Assembly: GCA_964478985.1 (NCBI GenBank) | Contig: CAYZJW010000001.1 | Span: 9,969 to 46,941 of the forward strand | DNA from: an uncultured Actinomycetota bacterium | Lineage (GTDB): Bacteria > Actinomycetota > Humimicrobiia > Humimicrobiales > Humimicrobiaceae | Length of the DNA stretch: 36,973 nucleotides | Direction: 5' to 3' | Shown here: positions 7,471 to 34,379 of the stretch, in pieces | Layout of the letters: each line of letters opens with the position of its first letter | Position numbering within the stretch: position 1 is the stretch's first letter | The notes under the pieces: generated by a model | Databases searched by the model: none | Told to the model about the DNA's origin: nothing | Seen by the model: only the letters and a program-made list of their open reading frames with translations | Translations under genes and position numbers: made by a program

Positions 7471-8718
7471 TTAATTTTTTATCATCCTGGAAATGAACTC
7501 CCTGAACCGGCTCAAAAACCCCTTTTCATCACTTCCATTATCAGTACCATCCATATCCGCCAGGCTTTCAAGCTGATGTGCATATTTAAGCAGGCCTACA
7601 CCGGTAGAATAGAAAGGCTCGCCGATCACTTCCTGGGGCCCTTCGACTTCTTCCGGAAGCCCCAGCCTGACAGGCATATCGAATACCGATTCCGCAAGCG
7701 CTTTTATCCCTTTAAGCCTGGAAGAACCTCCCGTAAGGACCAGTCCGCACGGCAGTGAATGCATGTAGCCGTGTTCCCGGACTTTTTCTTTTACAAGTTC
7801 AAATATTTCCTTCACCCTTGAATTGACAATATTATACAGTCTGATATTAAGGGTGGTCTTATTCCTGTTTATCTTTATCTCGCCCATATTCACCTTGCTC
7901 AGGTTCTCGTAGAAATCATAGTCTACATTTGCATACTTCTTCTTTATTTCTTCCGCTTTGGCAAATGTTATATTGAGACCCACGGATATGTCATTGGTCA
8001 CAAGGTTGCCGCCCACTGGAAGGCAATAGGTGAATATCATCTTCCTGTCTTTGTATATGGCAATATCGGTTGTCCCGCCCCCGATATCCAGAACCAGGGA
8101 GCCGCTTTCCTTTTCCTCCGAAGTAAGCACTGCTTCGCTGGAAGCCAGGGCTTCAAGTATTATATCCTCGACTTCTATTTTAGAGGACCTTACCGTATTT
8201 ATCACATTATTTATTTGCAGTGATGACCCGTATACTGCCAGCAGCTCCACTGCCAGTTTTCTGGCTGAGAGCCCTATGGGGTCTATTATCCCATTCTCGT
8301 CATCTATGACAAACTGTTTTATAAGTGTGTGTATTATATTATTGGAAGACGGCATGTTTACCCTGTTTGCCTGGGCTATAAGCCTGTCCACATCAGCCTT
8401 CCTTATAAGGTGGTTGGGGGTATTGATGCTGATCTCGCTCCAGTTGGTTACAAATGATATATGCTTCCCGGTCACGCCGATAAATGCTTTGTCTATAAAA
8501 TATTTGGTCGATCTTTCAGCTTCATCTACGGAACTAAGGACTGACCTTGTAGCTTCATTTATATCGACAATCAATCCCTTCTTCATGCCCCTGCAGGGAG
8601 AGATGCCATACCCTATTATCCTGAGGACATTGTTTTTACCTATTTCTCCTATCAGGGTAACTACTTTGGTGGTACCGATATCTATACCGACAATATAACC
8701 ATCCTTGGCTGACAACAA
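7471..8718 (-). CDS. ftsA: Cell division protein FtsA
   Basis: Actin-fold phosphate motifs VGIDIGTTKV and LDIGGGTTDIAI. C-terminal amphipathic FLSRFREFISRMIKN. TTG start with GGAGG upstream. Confidence 0.95.
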   Translation of the reverse strand: MLSAKDGYIVGIDIGTTKVVTLIGEIGKNNVLRIIGYGISPCRGMKKGLIVDINEATRSVLSSVDEAERSTKYFIDKAFIGVTGKHISFVTNWSEISINTPNHLIRKADVDRLIAQANRVNMPSSNNIIHTLIKQFVIDDENGIIDPIGLSARKLAVELLAVYGSSLQINNVINTVRSSKIEVEDIILEALASSEAVLTSEEKESGSLVLDIGGGTTDIAIYKDRKMIFTYCLPVGGNLVTNDISVGLNITFAKAEEIKKKYANVDYDFYENLSKVNMGEIKINRNKTTLNIRLYNIVNSRVKEIFELVKEKVREHGYMHSLPCGLVLTGGSSRLKGIKALAESVFDMPVRLGLPEEVEGPQEVIGEPFYSTGVGLLKYAHQLESLADMDGTDNGSDEKGFLSRFREFISRMIKN

Positions 8719-27603: not shown

Positions 27604-28050
27604 ATGAATAAGACAAATATAATCATAATAATAATCTGTACTGCAATAATTGCTGCAGCCGCCTATTTATCTTTAAGGGAAGAACCGTTAATAAGAGATA
27701 TATACCTGGCAGACAGCCTGGATCCGGGACATGGATTCCCCCGGGATGAAGATATCCGCCACTTTGACAGCAGTGATCCCGGCATCTACCTGATAATACA
27801 GGTAAGTGACATTGAAGAGGGCCAAAGACTGAAAACGGAATGGGTATTCTTAGGAGATGGCGGACAGAGCATAATGCAGACTGATGATATAGTAATTAAC
27901 GACGACGGAAGCGGCAGTATTGCGGTCTACCTGGTCAAAAGGGACGGTCTCTATGCCCCCGGTGATTACCTGGTAAAAATAGGTCATGCTGGTACTCAGC
28001 AAAAACAGCTGACATTCTCGGTAAGCGGCGGTCAGGCGCCAGAACCGTGA
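27604..28050 (+). CDS. Hypothetical N-terminally anchored exported protein
   Basis: The N-terminal transmembrane or signal anchor NIIIIIICTAIIAAAAYL is followed by about 115 aa of beta-rich acidic domain. It is the only credible plus-strand gene, and its 3' end overlaps the convergent 2PGK-like gene by 19 nt. Confidence 0.6.
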   Translation: MNKTNIIIIIICTAIIAAAAYLSLREEPLIRDIYLADSLDPGHGFPRDEDIRHFDSSDPGIYLIIQVSDIEEGQRLKTEWVFLGDGGQSIMQTDDIVINDDGSGSIAVYLVKRDGLYAPGDYLVKIGHAGTQQKQLTFSVSGGQAPEP

Positions 28051-28991
28051 GCATACTCAGTCCCCAGCCTGTCAAACTGGTCTTTCACTGTCTTGAATAC
28101 CAGTTCCAGGGCTTTTTTTACTGTATTGTCCAGATTATAGTTCTGGATTATGCTTACATTATTTTTTGCCGCCAGGTCTTCCAGGTAATCCTGTATCATA
28201 AGTATCTTGTCCAGGTGTTTGATATATCTCTGTACCGGCCGTGAACCCTGGGTCTCCACTGTCCTTTTGGCAAAATGCTCTTTATGGACATCCTTATCAG
28301 GTACAGCGATAAGCATGCTGATGATAATGGCCTTATCGTCATATCTGGCGGTATCCAGGTATCCCGGCACCACATGGGCTCCTTCTATGACTATATCTGT
28401 CTTTTCTTCTACGCTCCTCTTTATAATAGCTTCAATGCCTACATTTACCGCCAGTACCTGCTCCCTGAAGCCCAGTATTACCGGCTCCACTCCTGTCGGA
28501 GGCAGGGTCAGGTTCTTATATGCACTGTAGGAAGAACCCCTCAGGGGACGGATAAGTCTTTCTGATACTGAAGCCCGCATGACTTCCCTTATGGCATCAG
28601 TAGACGCAACCCTGGTGATATTAAGCCGGCTGGCCAGTACCGTGGCAACCGTAGATTTGCCAACGCCTGTAGCCCCGCCCACAAGGATAATAGTGGGTTT
28701 ATGCAGTTTCCCCACAGACTGCCACAGAAGATATTTCTCGGCATTTTCCAGCCCCGCTTCTTCCTTTATAAACCTGAAGGCAAGGGACCTTAGCTCGTCC
28801 AGGGTTATGGATCTTATATTATTATCAGTAAAATAATCCTGAACATCGGAAGCTATCTTGTGGGCTGTTACCATCTCCAGCCCGGCTACTGCTATGGAAG
28901 ATGCCAGGATGCCCCTGGAAAACGGAAGCCCGCTTTTCTTATCCGATATGACTACCGTATTATGTTTTGATTCTTTTTCTCCCTGACCCAT
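28032..28991 (-). CDS. 2-phosphoglycerate kinase-like protein (COG2074 type)
   Basis: N-terminal ATP-cone-like segment (LPFSRGILASSIAVAGLEMVTAHKIASDV), then P-loop ILVGGATGVGKST. It lies 12 nt downstream of the cDPG synthetase-like gene, with AGGAG upstream. The family call is from memory of family features. Confidence 0.7.
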   Translation of the reverse strand: MGQGEKESKHNTVVISDKKSGLPFSRGILASSIAVAGLEMVTAHKIASDVQDYFTDNNIRSITLDELRSLAFRFIKEEAGLENAEKYLLWQSVGKLHKPTIILVGGATGVGKSTVATVLASRLNITRVASTDAIREVMRASVSERLIRPLRGSSYSAYKNLTLPPTGVEPVILGFREQVLAVNVGIEAIIKRSVEEKTDIVIEGAHVVPGYLDTARYDDKAIIISMLIAVPDKDVHKEHFAKRTVETQGSRPVQRYIKHLDKILMIQDYLEDLAAKNNVSIIQNYNLDNTVKKALELVFKTVKDQFDRLGTEYAHGSGA

Positions 28992-29003
28992 CGGCTTTGG
29001 CTC

Positions 29004-30389
29004 CTATTCTATCAATCCCATAAGTTCTTTTTTAAAGCTGCTTCCCCTTTTGGCTGCCACCGGGATATTATCGATAAATGAGACTTCCTTTTTGTTCTCG
29101 GAAGCATAGCGGGTAAGGACATCTACCGCAGCTGCCTTCAGTTCGGTAAGTATGGTATCAAAAGCCGGGCTGGCGGCCAGGTCTTTTCTCAGTTCCTGCC
29201 TGTTTGAGAGGTTGAAGCTGGCTGACGCTACCCGGCATCCGTATTCCTTCTCCATATATTTAATTATTTTATTTTCTATTGCCGGGCTGGCAGTCATGGC
29301 CAGGAATACTTTCCTGCCTTTTATATTTGACAGCGGTTTGGGTCTGAATACAGTCCTTAACACTGCTGCTCCCGGATTATATTTTTTTATCTCTTTTTCC
29401 AATTCAGCTATCTTATTGCTGTCTGCCATCGGTTCTTCGCACATGGTAAGGATTATAAGGTCTGCCAGGATTATCCTGTATATCCCCAGATACCCTATGA
29501 TGCTGGTCCAGTCCTGGAAAGCTCCGATGACGCAGATCCTGGCGTCTGTGTCTATTCCGGGTATGGAAGCACCGCTTCCCTCTACTATCAAAAGGTCCGG
29601 GCCCAGGCTTTCGGCTATTCTTGCACCCTGTTCCAGATTGGTCATGAATATATCACCGGCAAAACCCCCGCCGCATCTCCTGCAGCCTATAGTGGTTATC
29701 TCGCTCAGCATTGCATCTTCAATATAATCAGAACTGGCATGAAGTCCTTTCCGGTTAAGTCCAAGCAGGTATTCCGGGTTAATATCTATTTCATCACCTT
29801 TTATGACCTGCGGTTCCGCAGGGCCTCCCCTTCCCATTGCCAAAACGGCTGTTTCAATATCCTCCTCGGAATATAATTTGGCCGCATATGAACTTATTGC
29901 CGTCTTTCCTATCCTCTTTCCTGTACCTATTATGGAAATCGACTTTACGGAAAGCCTGATATCTTGCCTCTGGCTCTCAAAAAGGAAATCCGGCCCCATA
30001 TAACTGCATCCTCTGGCAATGCAGAAAGATGCTATCTTCATCCTGGACCTGTAGTCCACCACCGGTTCATCACTCAGGTCATATGCTATATCGGGCTTGA
30101 AGTGCTTAAGGGCTTCCGTAAAATCATGGTCCAGGTCACTTATGATATATACTTTTCCTCCGAAATAGTCTTCCAGGTCATCCATCACCAGCTTTTCGCT
30201 CCCGCCCAGAAACACGATGCCGGCAAAACTTCCTGTAAAACAGTCTTTCAGCATGGCCAGTGCATCCCTGGTCACATCAGGATAGTGTTCTCCGTCTATC
30301 AGGGCTATAAGCTTTTTATGCCTGTTGTCTTTTCTCCGTAATAAATTTTTCACAGAGCTTAGCCTTCCTGCCCACCCTTTTGACTCCAA
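29004..30389 (-). CDS. cpgS: Cyclic 2,3-diphosphoglycerate synthetase-like protein
   Basis: About 450-460 aa, with N-terminal LIALIDGEHYPDV and central P-loop IIGTGKRIGKTA. It is adjacent to the 2PGK-like gene. The track start is TTG (30389). A GTG at 30353 with AGGAAGG upstream is an alternative start. Confidence 0.6.
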   Translation of the reverse strand: MESKGWAGRLSSVKNLLRRKDNRHKKLIALIDGEHYPDVTRDALAMLKDCFTGSFAGIVFLGGSEKLVMDDLEDYFGGKVYIISDLDHDFTEALKHFKPDIAYDLSDEPVVDYRSRMKIASFCIARGCSYMGPDFLFESQRQDIRLSVKSISIIGTGKRIGKTAISSYAAKLYSEEDIETAVLAMGRGGPAEPQVIKGDEIDINPEYLLGLNRKGLHASSDYIEDAMLSEITTIGCRRCGGGFAGDIFMTNLEQGARIAESLGPDLLIVEGSGASIPGIDTDARICVIGAFQDWTSIIGYLGIYRIILADLIILTMCEEPMADSNKIAELEKEIKKYNPGAAVLRTVFRPKPLSNIKGRKVFLAMTASPAIENKIIKYMEKEYGCRVASASFNLSNRQELRKDLAASPAFDTILTELKAAAVDVLTRYASENKKEVSFIDNIPVAAKRGSSFKKELMGLIE

Positions 30390-31122
30390 GGATCTTTTCT
30401 ATCCTGTCAAAGGGAGACCTCCTGTATATATCTATCTCTTTTTCCCTGATATATATTATATTATAACTGGGCTCTATGATGCCCCTGAGTCTCAGGCAGG
30501 AGACGGTACCCGCAGTCACCACCAGCATATCTTCTATCCTCCACAGGTAAGGCACGTGTTTGTGTCCGCAAAGCACCATATCCACCCCGGCATCGACGAT
30601 GGTCTCCAGGACATCCCCGGCATCATTTACAATATTACGTTCCCTCCCCGTATTGGGCACCGAGACCAGGTGGTGATGTATGGCGAATATCTTGAAATTC
30701 TTTTTAGGTTTTTTAGCTAACTCTTCTTTGATCCATTTATAGTGCTCCCTGCCTATCTGCCCGTTATCAAGGTCAGGCTCGCTGGAGTCGGCAGCTATTA
30801 TGGTGACTTCTTCATTGCTAAAGGTCTTATACCTCTGGCCGAAAAGTTCCTCAAAGTGGAGATATCCCACATTCCTGGAATCATGATTTCCAAGCTGAAC
30901 CATAAGGTTTTTACATTTTATGGGAGCCAGGTAATTCTTAACTGTTTCATATTCGCGCCTGAACCCATTGGCTGTAAGGTCGCCGGTTATGATGACTACA
31001 TCAGGATTTAGCTCATTTATCTCATCTATTGCCCTGGTAAGAAGGCTGGGGACAAAGTGGGATTCCCCCACATGGATATCCGATATCTGGGCAATAATGG
31101 TCTCTTTTTCTTTTTCAGCCAT
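30316..31122 (-). CDS. Calcineurin-like metallophosphoesterase
   Basis: The full metal-binding motif set is present: SDIHVG, TGDLTANG, GNHD, IHHH and CGHKH. The 3' end overlaps the cDPGS-like ORF by 38-74 nt. GAAAGGAAG upstream. Confidence 0.85.
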   Translation of the reverse strand: MAEKEKETIIAQISDIHVGESHFVPSLLTRAIDEINELNPDVVIITGDLTANGFRREYETVKNYLAPIKCKNLMVQLGNHDSRNVGYLHFEELFGQRYKTFSNEEVTIIAADSSEPDLDNGQIGREHYKWIKEELAKKPKKNFKIFAIHHHLVSVPNTGRERNIVNDAGDVLETIVDAGVDMVLCGHKHVPYLWRIEDMLVVTAGTVSCLRLRGIIEPSYNIIYIREKEIDIYRRSPFDRIEKILGVKRVGRKAKLCEKFITEKRQQA

Positions 31123-31183: not shown

Positions 31184-32296
31184 TCATCCAAAAAGGTTTA
31201 ATCTTCCAGAAATATCTCTATATTTCTTCTCACCCCGGAGCACACGGCAGCAAAGCCTGAAAAATCTTTCATCCGTCCTGAAAAGCTTATAGAAAAAAAT
31301 GGGAAAGGAAAAGAAAACCTTTGAAAACCTGAGGGATATTTTTATGTCCTCATAAATATCTTCCCATATCCTCTGCCGGTAATCAGGGAAGTCAAACCTG
31401 GATGTCCTTAATGCATTATCTATGCTTTCTGCCGCCATATGGGAACTCTTGAGTGAATTATATATGCCTTCACCCGTAAAGCCGTCCCCCAGGCAGGCAG
31501 CATCCCCCACAGCCAGGACCCTGTAGCTGCAGACCGGCGTATTTTCTGTACGGACCGGTATAGACTGGGCTTTGATATCGGTCATATTCCCATTGCTTTT
31601 TCCATTCATATAGGCATGAAAATAACTTTTCATGGCCCGGGCTGTAGAAAAAGGGGCGCCTATGCCATAGGATATTATCTTTTTCCTGGGAAAAGCCCAT
31701 ACATAACCATTTTTTATACCGCCAAAATCCAGGCCGGCTGCATCATAATACTTTTTTTCCTCCTCAGGACCTGAAGTTCTTTCCGTTTCATAGCCAAGTA
31801 TCCTCATTATGCTGCTTCCGGAAGTAAGCAATCGGTGGACTGCGCCTCTTATGCCGTCAGCCCCGGCAAGGACCCTGGCTTCATATGACCTCTGTGCAGT
31901 ATCAACCCTTATAATATCCTTTCCCGGTGCATATCCTGTTACCGTTTCTCCAAAATTTATACTGCATCCCTTATCCAGGGCTTTTTTTGCCAGAAAGGCA
32001 TCAAACTCGCTCCTCTGGACAGTATGCAGGATGGGAAGCATATACTTCCTGGAGAAAACATCCCTTTTCCTGTAGCTGAATAAGATGCCATGCAGGCTTT
32101 TATGCACTACTTTACTTATATCAAAAGGGATAAGGGCCAGGCTCCTGTGCTGCAGGCCTCCGGCGCATATCTTATGCCTGGGAAATTCCTGCTTTTCCAA
32201 TATAAGGGTATTAATACCTCTGCCGGCAAGCAGATAACCCAGAAGGCTCCCCGAGGGGCCGGCTCCCGAGATTATCACATCATATCTTGAATCCAT
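31184..32296 (-). CDS. Geranylgeranyl reductase-family FAD-dependent oxidoreductase
   Basis: YDVIISGAGPSGSLLGYLLA dinucleotide fold, and VLAVGDAACLGDGFTGEGI. I trimmed to the ATG at 32296 (MDSRYDVII), though 32302 is also possible. The track TTG start would lie inside the upstream terminator. Confidence 0.85.
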   Translation of the reverse strand: MDSRYDVIISGAGPSGSLLGYLLAGRGINTLILEKQEFPRHKICAGGLQHRSLALIPFDISKVVHKSLHGILFSYRKRDVFSRKYMLPILHTVQRSEFDAFLAKKALDKGCSINFGETVTGYAPGKDIIRVDTAQRSYEARVLAGADGIRGAVHRLLTSGSSIMRILGYETERTSGPEEEKKYYDAAGLDFGGIKNGYVWAFPRKKIISYGIGAPFSTARAMKSYFHAYMNGKSNGNMTDIKAQSIPVRTENTPVCSYRVLAVGDAACLGDGFTGEGIYNSLKSSHMAAESIDNALRTSRFDFPDYRQRIWEDIYEDIKISLRFSKVFFSFPIFFYKLFRTDERFFRLCCRVLRGEKKYRDISGRLNLFG

Positions 32297-32309
32297 TAGC
32301 ATTAATTTT

Positions 32310-32360
32310 ATAAAAAGAAAAAGCAAAGCACAACAAATTAATATTGCTGTGCCTTGCTTT
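32310..32360 (-). terminator. Rho-independent terminator after the ABC ATPase gene
   Basis: In the minus-strand RNA the stem is AAAGCAAGGCACA / UGUGCUUUGCUUU: 13 bp with one G-U pair and a 15-nt loop. UUCUUUUUAU follows. Confidence 0.6.
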
Positions 32361-32386
32361 CAATATGATATATCAGGCTTTGTTCC

Positions 32387-33484
32387 TTATATGTATGCCT
32401 TTTCTGTCTTCTTGTCAAATAGATGCATCATATCCAGGTCAATGTACAGTTTTGCCTTGTCTCCGCTCCTCAGTTTTGACCTTGGGGAGACACGGGCTGT
32501 CATAAGCACTCCGTTTATGTCCACATAGACATATATCTCTGCACCCATGGGCTCTGTTACCTCTACATCGGCGGTAATGGTATTGCTATCCCCGGCTTCG
32601 GGAATGAATTCTGCATCTTCCAGGTCCTCGGGCCTTATGCCGGCGACTATATCCTTGCCTGCAAGGTCGTTCTTCTTGATGATATCCTTGAGCTTGTCAC
32701 TGGTATCGATCTCAAACTGGTCATTCTTCAGAGTCAGCTTTTCAGTGACCGTGACATCCACAAAGTTCATGGCCGGAGATCCTATGAAACCGGCAACGAA
32801 CATATTGTCAGGATGGTCATAGACTTCCTGGGGCGCCCCGGTCTGCTGTACGATGCCGTCCTTCATGATAATGATCTTGCTGGCCATGGTCATAGCCTCT
32901 GTCTGGTCATGGGTGACATAGACGATAGTGGCTTTGAGCCTCTGGTGCAGTTTGGCGATCTCTGTCCTCATCTGTACCCTTAACTTGGCATCCAGGTTTG
33001 ACAGCGGCTCATCCATAAGGAACACTTTGGGGTCCCTTACAATGGCTCTACCCAGGGCTACACGCTGTCTCTGCCCTCCTGAAAGCTGTTTGGGTTTTCT
33101 CTTGAGAAGATCTTCGATCTTCAGGATCCTGGCGGCGTTCTGTACTCTTTTTTCGATCTCGGCTTTGGGGGTCCTTCGCAGCTTGAGCCCGAAAGCCATG
33201 TTGTTGTAAACATCCATGTGGGGGTAAAGGGCATAGTTCTGAAAAACCATAGCGATGTCCCTGTCCTTTGGGGGGACATCGTTGACCAGTCTGTCTCCGA
33301 TATAGATTTCTCCCTCGGTTACTTCCTCCAGTCCTGCTATCATACGCAGGGTGGTGGTTTTACCGCATCCTGAGGGTCCTACCAGGACCACAAATTGTTG
33401 ATCTTCGATGACGTCGTTCATCTTGTTAACAGCCACAACCTCATCGAATCTCTTGGTCAGGTCTTTTAGAAGTACCTTAGCCAT
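32387..33484 (-). CDS. MalK/UgpC/MsiK-type carbohydrate ABC transporter ATP-binding protein
   Basis: Walker [10 protein letters not shown], signature [14 protein letters not shown], Walker [12 protein letters not shown] and H-loop VTHDQ. A C-terminal regulatory OB/TOBE-like domain is present. No permease or binding-protein gene is adjacent. Confidence 0.93.
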
Positions 33485-33539: not shown

Positions 33540-34379
33540 TTATTTTCTATAAAATGACAGGTATTTCATGCCGTATGGATCCCTTCCGGCAAGGAAATCC
33601 GCTGCCCTCATGGCTTCAATAAGTCCCGGCGTCAGGGGATCGGCTATGGGCGCATTCAGGCCGTTCATTATCCCCATGGAGATGAAATGTATATTTATCA
33701 GTTCCCTGTTAGGCATGCCGTAGCTTATATTGGAATATCCTCCTGTTGTGGCGACACCATATTCAGCCGCTATCCTCCTCTGGGTCTCAATAGTTGTTTT
33801 TGCCGACTCGGAATTGGTGGAATTAGTCATCACCAGGGCATCAAATACCAGGTCCTGCCTGTCTATTTTCATCTTTTCTGCCCGCTTCATGATCTTTTCC
33901 GCTATGGCAAGCCTTTTTTCTACTGTATCGGGTATACCGTTTTCGTCCATCATCAGGCAGATAACGGCAGAGCCGCTTTCCGCTACCACCGGCAGCAGGT
34001 TTTTCATGGACTTTTCCTCACCGTTTACTGAATTTATGAGGACCTTGTTGGGATAGACCTTAAGTGCCGCCTTGAGCGCTTCCGGATTGGCAGAATCCAG
34101 GCATATGGGCTGATCCGTCTGCTCCATGACTGCTTCTACGGCCCTGGGCAGCATGTCCACCTCATCCACTCCTACAGCACCTACATTTATATCGATAATA
34201 TCCCCGCCTGCTTCGGCCTGTTTCCTGGCATCTTCCCTTACTATATCCAGCTTGCCTTCCTGAAGCTCTGCCGCAAGCTTTTTGCGTCCGGTAGGATTTA
34301 TCCTTTCGGCAATTATTACCGTTGGCAGTCCCTGGCCGAATCTTACTTCTGTACCGTTACCGGTTACCACTGTTTCCAT
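33540..34379 (-). CDS. Pterin-binding methyltransferase (methyl-THF:corrinoid methyltransferase, AcsE/MeTr-like)
   Basis: IIAERINPTGRKKL, GGDIIDINVG, ICLDSANPEALKAAL, LINSVNGEE and GYSNISYGMPNR. These match the pterin-binding TIM-barrel pattern of the AcsE/MetH domain. Confidence 0.75.
   Translation of the reverse strand: METVVTGNGTEVRFGQGLPTVIIAERINPTGRKKLAAELQEGKLDIVREDARKQAEAGGDIIDINVGAVGVDEVDMLPRAVEAVMEQTDQPICLDSANPEALKAALKVYPNKVLINSVNGEEKSMKNLLPVVAESGSAVICLMMDENGIPDTVEKRLAIAEKIMKRAEKMKIDRQDLVFDALVMTNSTNSESAKTTIETQRRIAAEYGVATTGGYSNISYGMPNRELINIHFISMGIMNGLNAPIADPLTPGLIEAMRAADFLAGRDPYGMKYLSFYRK

Follow-up and report, generated by a model that had tools for sequence, protein, structure and literature searches.

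A predicted cyclic 2,3-diphosphoglycerate cassette with a linked metallophosphoesterase in an uncultured Actinomycetota lineage

Introduction

In the literature, cyclic 2,3-diphosphoglycerate (cDPG) is regarded as an extremolyte that typifies hyperthermophilic methanogens. Its synthesis has been described as a branch off gluconeogenesis, a membrane-bound cDPG hydrolase activity is known in Methanothermobacter thermautotrophicus, and a storage role (phosphate, carbon or energy) or an osmolyte role has been discussed for the cDPG of that species (PMC1224877). Of the two enzyme families concerned, COG2074, which includes 2-phosphoglycerate kinase (2PGK), was reported in 2005 to occur in both Thermus and Deinococcus, where it was labelled an “archaeal” gene (PMC1274311), and a bacterial 2PGK homologue is therefore not new in itself. 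The current study concerns a cassette of three minus-strand genes in a 36,973-nt stretch of DNA from an uncultured Actinomycetota bacterium (assembly GCA_964478985.1, contig CAYZJW010000001.1, positions 9,969-46,941), the whole of which is referred to here as the window. In order of transcription, the cassette encodes a metallophosphoesterase (MPE), a putative cDPG synthetase (cDPGS) and a putative 2PGK, and it is likely that the latter two make cDPG, while the MPE may act upon the same metabolite pool. An earlier note on this DNA had proposed a two-gene cDPG pathway of synthetase and kinase, but missed the conserved third gene.

Results

The cDPG synthetase and 2-phosphoglycerate kinase genes

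Both open reading frames (ORFs) named in the earlier note are present on the minus strand where it had placed them, with the kinase gene 12 nt downstream of the synthetase gene, and both contain the motifs quoted for them: KKLIALIDGEHYPDVT (residues 25-40) and IIGTGKRIGKTA (residues 153-164) in the synthetase, and PFSRGILASSIAVAGL..AHKIASDV and LVGGATGVGKST in the kinase. The maximal synthetase ORF (29004-30389, 461 amino acids from a TTG codon) is probably 12 codons too long, as the GTG at 30353 is preceded by GGAAGG and matches the 449-residue gene call of a 94%-identical relative. The proposed membership of the cDPG synthetase family is borne out by homology that spans the crystallized Methanothermus fervidus enzyme (PDB 8ORK) in full, its unique N-terminal domain as well as the P-loop C-domain; phmmer aligns residues 24-446 of the query with residues 4-434 of the chain at E = 5.9e-125, with 48.6% identity over 422 columns. 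No model in the local Pfam and NCBIfam libraries matched the protein. PF27272 (CpgS_N), presumably newer than our Pfam copy, is found in the precomputed annotations of relatives, including the 94%-identical one, and the identity of the synthetase thus rests upon the PDB match together with these annotations. When clustered at 90% identity, the matches of the synthetase search number over 7,900, and the family comprises 182 clusters at 50% identity (E <= 1e-30), with the whole clade containing the window protein (the window clade) forming a single one of them.

The residues touching 2,3-diphosphoglycerate (2,3-DPG), Mg2+ and ADP have been named in the M. fervidus structure: E45 and K46 make trans-subunit substrate contacts, K145 and R146 contact 2,3-DPG, T150 and D208 are Mg ligands, and E305, T353, E404 and K406 contact the nucleotide (PMC10690619). 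Once the M. fervidus numbering had been reconstructed by means of the alignment, 11 of the 12 named ligand residues fall on the stated amino acid, and all 11 of these usable positions (the ten above and K149) are identical in the window protein, in which they become, in ascending order, E65, K66, K158, R159, K162, T163, D221, E318, T366, E416 and K418. The Walker A motif GTGKRIGKT is also identical to that of M. fervidus, and K158, R159, K162 and T163 are invariant in 34/34 sequences. Across the family, the ligand pattern EKKRKTDETEK occurs in 150 of 188 full-length homologues, nearly all of the others differing only at the adenosine contact E305, and the full ligand set is kept in every one of the 27 metagenome homologues checked. 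The position left unused is P335, which is listed as a nucleotide contact in PMC10690619, yet residue 335 of 8ORK is a Phe; the nearest prolines in 8ORK are 332 and 337, and P337 is invariant across the family. A second deposited “cDPG synthetase”, PDB 9SXB (436 amino acids, E = 4e-103 to the window protein), does not have the MCEEPMA glutamate equivalent to E305, and a literature search for 9SXB found no associated paper.

The kinase matches NF003259 from end to end (E = 8.4e-92, 307.8 bits; residues 9-307 on positions 2-297 of the 306-position profile), and the two 2PGK equivalog models are by a wide margin its best NCBIfam matches (E = 8.4e-92 and 1.2e-88). This supports its identification as a COG2074 2PGK, though with a score just under the curated cut-off. 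The P-loop that had been recognized in this protein is clear (GGATGVGKST, with Pfam AAA_18 and AAA_33 matches), whereas the supposed ATP-cone-like N-terminus yields a weak match to PF03477 (E = 4.9e-4, 21 bits) that lies below the 25.8-bit cut-off. Precomputed PF03477 matches are present in some close kinase homologues, and close homologues are named 2-phosphoglycerate kinase by both NCBI and JGI. As no solved 2PGK structure was found for comparison, membership of the kinase in its family rests upon the profile match and the genomic coupling described below.

A linked metallophosphoesterase

The first gene of the cassette overlaps the synthetase start by 38 nt at its 3' end. Its product matches Pfam Metallophos (E = 1e-18, 68.9 bits, cut-off 21.5) and scores far under the CpdA (41.1 bits, cut-off 225) and SpdA (44.7 bits, cut-off 400) equivalog models. 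The closest PDB sequences are Rv0805 and GpdQ at 15-20% identity, and a Foldseek search with the AlphaFold model (pLDDT 82.5) likewise returned purple acid phosphatase, Rv0805 and GpdQ at TM ~0.65. Among homologues, the metal-ligand motifs are invariant, as is a set of extra Arg/Lys residues.

The neighborhood of the cassette is syntenic throughout the window clade, and the linkage of the MPE there consequently proves little when taken alone. All six of the second-tier MPE homologues examined (54-62% identical) are nonetheless encoded directly upstream of cDPGS-2PGK, and their flanks differ both from those of the window and from each other, amounting to at least three unrelated contexts. In Ca. 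Hakubella thermalkaliphila (L037, L038), Hom, ThrC and a GHMP kinase are encoded upstream, with transaldolase and Rho downstream; in Thermoleophilia-like loci (L039-L041), a phosphoribosyltransferase gene lies upstream on the opposite strand and GlpX is encoded downstream; and in L042 and L044 an ApgM gene or a glycogen-debranching-enzyme gene is found upstream. As the triad occurs in such differing flanks, we rejected the explanation that the MPE linkage is mere inherited synteny. Furthermore, the MPE is more conserved than its partners, with 59% identity in L039 versus 42% for cDPGS and 34% for 2PGK. Judged by its sequence relatives, the MPE is an uncharacterized subfamily with strict cDPGS-2PGK linkage, and this linkage makes it a candidate cDPG or 2,3-DPG hydrolase. 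To our knowledge, no gene has been assigned to the cDPG hydrolase activity.

Gene pairing across genomes and metagenomes

Linkage was surveyed in 32 genome loci and in 80 metagenome loci that had been retrieved by means of an alignment of diverse family members. Among the genomes, 2PGK adjoins cDPGS in a single Thermoplasmata locus and in every bacterial locus with an available flank, where either gene may come first, while no 2PGK was found within 6 kb of cDPGS in the Methanobacteria loci. Among the metagenomes, 2PGK is adjacent in 21/21 window-clade loci, with the MPE upstream in all 18 that have enough flank, and in 9/11 other Actinomycetota-like loci, with the MPE upstream in 9/11; in the 39 methanogen-type loci, neither a 2PGK is adjacent nor an MPE upstream (0/39 for each). 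The pairing of the two genes is conserved within limits, and with the family match and the COG2074 match also found, the core identification of the earlier note stands. Intact cDPGS genes unlinked to 2PGK were also encountered in mesophilic gut and rumen Methanobrevibacter and in other Methanobacteria (L006-L018, L028, L069-L122), which indicates that the synthetase is not confined to thermophiles even among methanogens.

Poribacteria, Omnitrophota and two unclassified bacteria have a second architecture, 2PGK-cDPGS-ApgM followed by a CBS-pair protein where the flank reaches that far (Table 1), with a gene order opposite to that of the window and without a metallophosphoesterase. The mutase of these cassettes is an archaeal-type cofactor-independent phosphoglycerate mutase (PF10143, E ~1e-50). 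As ApgM converts 3-phosphoglycerate to 2-phosphoglycerate, the substrate of the kinase, its presence provides independent support for the assigned chemistry. The cassettes of Actinomycetota, in turn, adjoin GlpX fructose-bisphosphatase (with start/stop overlaps), transaldolase or ApgM, all of which fit with the description of cDPG synthesis as a gluconeogenic branch.

The generalization that all bacterial loci pair both genes was corrected by kinase-less, transporter-linked variants in the metagenome survey. Seven unclassified, bacterial-looking contigs (L067, L068, L082, L085, L086, L120 and L125) have no kinase and keep the full cDPGS ligand set, and several of them encode an ABC transporter, a regulator or an iPGM-like protein beside the synthetase (Table 1). 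Such loci may constitute uptake or catabolic systems for cDPG or 2,3-DPG. The chemistry of the family thus looks uniform from its conserved residues, yet not every bacterial copy appears to reside in a biosynthetic pair. Two high-GC contigs (GC 0.68), L113 and L117, encode an MPE and a cDPGS, together with GlpX in L113. No 2PGK is detectable between the MPE, cDPGS and GlpX genes of L113, while L117 ends ~570 nt past cDPGS, which places its downstream genes outside view.

Operon limits and genomic context

Upstream of the MPE gene, across a 61-nt gap, lies a gene encoding a flavoprotein of the geranylgeranyl-reductase family, which is possibly co-transcribed with the cassette. We rejected it as a cassette member, since it is found upstream only in window-clade loci, the cassettes of Hakubella and Thermoleophilia being devoid of it. 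Its maximal ORF begins within a terminator-like hairpin, and translation therefore probably starts at a Met further downstream. The hairpin may delimit the transcription unit on its upstream side, in a window whose total of terminator-like sites is not above shuffled expectation; a promoter scan returned 12 sites versus a shuffled expectation of 12.9 and was not used. Beyond the hairpin is an ABC ATPase gene that is not conserved at this position in other lineages. At the opposite end, the operon's downstream limit is marked by a convergent ORF that shares 19 nt with the 3' end of the kinase gene and is conserved in the window clade only.

Most of the window beyond the pair is a colinear minus-strand gene array. 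According to family assignments, it includes a complete division and cell-wall (dcw) cluster (MraZ, RsmH, penicillin-binding protein (PBP), MurE, MurF, MraY, MurD, FtsW, MurG, MurC, MurB, Ddl, FtsQ, FtsA, FtsZ, SepF and DivIVA), while XseA, HisD and HisC are also encoded. This complete cluster identifies the contig as bacterial, as had been argued previously from its mur, fts and PBP genes. The nearest genomes are metagenome-assembled genomes of uncultured Actinomycetota (protein identity 94-96%), with Candidatus Humimicrobiaceae among the named relatives. The FtsA gene is located between those of FtsQ and FtsZ, in the same cluster as SepF and DivIVA. Classical Actinomycetes are not known to have FtsA, and its presence here would fit a deep-branching actinomycetotal class. 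A pterin-binding protein with weak similarity to CdhD and MtrH, conceivably an AcsE-like methyltransferase, is encoded upstream of the cassette throughout the window clade, a hint that this lineage of Actinomycetota may have a C1 metabolism of the Wood-Ljungdahl type. Scans of the window for Rfam families and tRNAs gave no matches.

Table 1. Coordinates of features in the window and of related loci on other contigs
Feature	Position	Strand	Basis or remarks
Window
FtsA gene	7471..8718	-	between FtsQ and FtsZ
Convergent ORF	27604..28050	+	148 aa, hydrophobic N-terminus; no Pfam/NCBIfam match
2-phosphoglycerate kinase (COG2074-type)	28032..28991	-	NCBIfam NF003259; 319 aa, ATG start
cDPG synthetase (cpgS-like)	29004..30353	-	PDB 8ORK/8ORU match; 449 aa from likely GTG start
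Binuclear metallophosphoesterase (Rv0805/GpdQ-like; calcineurin-type)	30316..31122	-	Pfam Metallophos
Geranylgeranyl-reductase-family flavoprotein	31184..32326	-	TIGR02032, E = 2e-52, above cut-off
Terminator-like hairpin (18 bp stem + T-run)	32319..32361	-	after ABC ATPase gene; consensus scan
ABC ATPase gene	32387..33484		beyond the hairpin
Pterin-binding protein	33540..34379	-	weak CdhD and MtrH similarity
Other contigs
ApgM cassette, L019	4853-9259		2PGK-cDPGS-ApgM
ApgM cassette, L022	4820-9094		2PGK-cDPGS-ApgM
ApgM cassette, L025	485-4033		2PGK-cDPGS-ApgM
ApgM cassette, L029	200-4254		2PGK-cDPGS-ApgM
ApgM cassette, L121			2PGK-cDPGS-ApgM
Kinase-less locus, L067	4965-9223		PhnS2/PhnU2-like ABC transporter downstream
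Kinase-less locus, L085	4173-9135		GntR/PhnF-type regulator upstream, PhnS2/PhnU2-like ABC transporter downstream
Kinase-less locus, L120	4755-7920		iPGM-like protein downstream
Kinase-less locus, L125	3834-8085		iPGM-like protein downstream, ABC ATPase upstream
High-GC locus, L113	1851-5217		MPE, cDPGS and GlpX

Discussion

Based upon the orthology of the synthetase, the conservation of its ligands and the linkage of the three genes, several predictions can be made regarding the function of the cassette. Firstly, its kinase would phosphorylate 2-phosphoglycerate with ATP to yield 2,3-DPG, and the synthetase would spend another ATP on forming the intramolecular phosphoanhydride of cDPG, presumably by the mechanism of the M. 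fervidus enzyme, as homology suggests for both steps. Secondly, gene linkage suggests that the MPE may act upon the same pool, either by converting cDPG to 2,3-DPG or by dephosphorylating 2,3-DPG. Synthesis and hydrolysis together would let the cell both build up and draw down its cDPG. Such a pool would more likely serve as a phosphate, carbon or energy reserve, or as an anionic osmolyte, than as a heat protectant, because the organism does not appear to be a hyperthermophile. The composition of 34 window proteins, membrane proteins included, gives F(IVYWREL) = 0.406, from which the amino-acid composition formula reportedly published by Zeldovich et al. in 2007 yields a growth temperature of ~45 C, while the record names of relatives refer to groundwater, aquifer sediment, marine sediment and subsurface samples. 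Taken together with the cDPGS of Methanobrevibacter, the temperature estimate and these habitats make a purely thermoprotective role unlikely.

Certainly, a number of observations weigh against this interpretation. The temperature estimate rests upon only 34 proteins, and, in the absence of regulation, a synthetase and a hydrolase encoded by the same operon would run a futile cycle. The 307.8-bit score of the kinase is below the curated 2PGK equivalog cut-off of 343, and COG2074 has relatives with other substrates, such as mevalonate-3-phosphate 5-kinase. As for the MPE, neither the PDB sequence comparison nor Foldseek revealed specific similarity to enzymes of known relevant substrate, both surveys found it to be absent from non-actinomycetotal cassettes and archaeal loci, and it looks soluble, unlike the membrane-bound cDPG hydrolase activity of M. 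thermautotrophicus. In addition, cDPG is said to be exclusive to hyperthermophilic methanogens (PMC10690619), in agreement with the earlier statement that it has been documented only in thermophilic methanogens.

A more far-reaching version of the proposal, which we offer tentatively and consider somewhat doubtful, would have the MPE as the long-missing cDPG hydrolase or 2,3-DPG phosphatase and the cassette as a self-contained “cDPG battery” that stores and releases phosphate, carbon and phosphoanhydride energy. If so, such a battery would be used by non-thermophilic, mostly subsurface Actinomycetota, and cDPG would be a widespread bacterial metabolite serving primarily for storage and not for thermoprotection, rather than a methanogen-specific extremolyte. 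The transporter-linked cDPGS homologues would in that case serve to scavenge this compound.

The direction of flux through the cassette could also be the reverse of that proposed. In this case, the cassette would be mainly degradative and energy-yielding, with cDPG or 2,3-DPG that is taken up or stored being turned back, whereby the synthetase, running in reverse, would yield ATP and the MPE would free phosphate. Accumulating cDPG de novo as a solute would then not be its principal function. The M. fervidus synthetase has been reported to be reversible (PMC1224877), the kinase-less cDPGS operons with their regulator, transporter or iPGM-like protein resemble uptake or catabolic systems, and a putative hydrolase is encoded within the window cassette itself. 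However, the cassette is without a transporter and includes an ATP-consuming kinase that would commit 2-phosphoglycerate to the pathway. The ABC ATPase close by is set apart by the terminator-like hairpin and is not conserved beside the cassette in other lineages. We consider a mainly degradative role unlikely for these reasons.

It is quite improbable that the two proteins are diverged paralogues that make or use another compound, as the earlier note had suggested as one of its two readings. In such a case, the synthetase homologue might be an ArcE-type arginine synthetase, or the kinase might act on some other small acid. ArcE, which catalyzes arginine + ADP + Pi <-> citrulline + NH3 + ATP, is indeed a real cDPGS paralogue that is widespread in bacteria (PMC11032458), and the most serious rival of this kind. 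Furthermore, the kinase scores below its curated cut-off in a family that holds other specificities, and the function of both proteins is a predicted one. On the other hand, the similarity of ArcE to cDPGS has been called low, and cDPGS was used as an outgroup (PMC11032458), while the window protein is 48.6% identical to a verified cDPGS and keeps every 2,3-DPG, Mg and ATP ligand. Family scans of the window proteins found no ornithine carbamoyltransferase or carbamate kinase, and in other bacteria it is a phosphoglycerate mutase that is joined to the cassette. Synthesis of cDPG from 2-phosphoglycerate remains the favored interpretation.

When examining the origin of the cassette, it is evident that it has long resided in its lineage: neither its GC content nor its skew departs from that of its flanks, and the synteny of the locus persists in relatives in which cDPGS is only 55-58% identical. 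In neighbor-joining bootstrap trees, which are effectively unrooted, the window clade is monophyletic with 100% support and a methanogen/Altiarchaeales clade splits from all bacterial sequences and the one Thermoplasmata sequence with 92-93% support, the deep bacterial branches being weak (22-38%). Synteny down to 55% identity and ordinary GC argue for vertical inheritance, and the cassette is thus probably a vertically inherited chromosomal feature of this uncultured Actinomycetota clade, situated just upstream of the dcw cluster. The horizontal acquisition from archaea suggested in the earlier note is at odds with the ordinary GC, the deep synteny and the placement of the bacterial sequences outside the methanogen clade, insofar as a recent event is concerned; the data exclude recent transfer from methanogens and leave the direction of any ancient transfer unset. 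Despite the discovery of the pathway in methanogens and the archaeal source of the closest solved structure, a recent import of the pair from a methanogen, perhaps not integrated into host physiology, is highly improbable in light of these features and of a gene order and MPE partner that differ from those of methanogens, where the genes are unlinked (0/39).

Both enzymes, bacterial homologues with automatic labels, and Pfam PF27272 are known already, whereas the phosphoesterase with its strict linkage and the other forms of the cassette appear to be undescribed. A full-text literature search found no paper discussing a bacterial cDPG pathway, a search for Hakubella or names beginning with Humimicrobi together with diphosphoglycerate found nothing relevant, and the bacterial papers that mention diphosphoglycerate did so only as glycolytic intermediates. 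The rarity in bacteria that had been implied previously was overestimated, as there are hundreds of bacterial relatives, many of them automatically named by NCBI and JGI. As far as gene content can indicate, a pathway that was supposed to be confined to methanogens is probably widespread among bacteria. If the cassettes are active, the range of cDPG would widen to Actinomycetota, Poribacteria, Omnitrophota and other non-thermal bacteria, which would argue for a storage or osmotic role over thermoprotection. As cDPG is under development as a high-value protectant, operon-encoded, moderate-temperature enzyme pairs could in that case be used for its production in bacterial hosts, and the conserved phosphoesterase would be a concrete candidate for the turnover enzyme.

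Among described systems, the closest is the cDPGS of M. fervidus (8ORK/8ORU; De Rose et al. 2023, PMC10690619), whose two-domain architecture the window protein shares over its full length. The window protein differs in that its host is a non-hyperthermophilic bacterium and its activity is predicted. Unlike in Methanobacteria, in which synthetase and kinase are unlinked, the window synthetase gene shares an operon with that of 2PGK, and the MPE gene overlaps it. The kinase resembles the archaeal 2PGK (COG2074; NF003259/PRK04220) in its end-to-end profile match and its P-loop, and perhaps in an N-terminal segment with a weak ATP-cone match, but falls 35 bits short of the curated equivalog cut-off. 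ArcE (Thermococcus kodakarensis TK2200) has historically been confused with cDPGS or “GTPase” annotations (PMC11032458), and it shares with the window synthetase both the P-loop superfamily and a wide occurrence in bacteria; the published description of ArcE sets the two apart, and its typical arcB/arcC neighbors are absent from the window. Finally, the MPE has the binuclear-metal fold of two class III metallophosphoesterases, the M. tuberculosis cyclic-nucleotide phosphodiesterase Rv0805 and the Enterobacter glycerophosphodiesterase GpdQ, including the motifs D-x-H, GD, GNHD, H and GHxH, but is distinguished from both by its low identity (15-20%), its extra invariant Arg/Lys residues and its strict linkage to cDPGS-2PGK.

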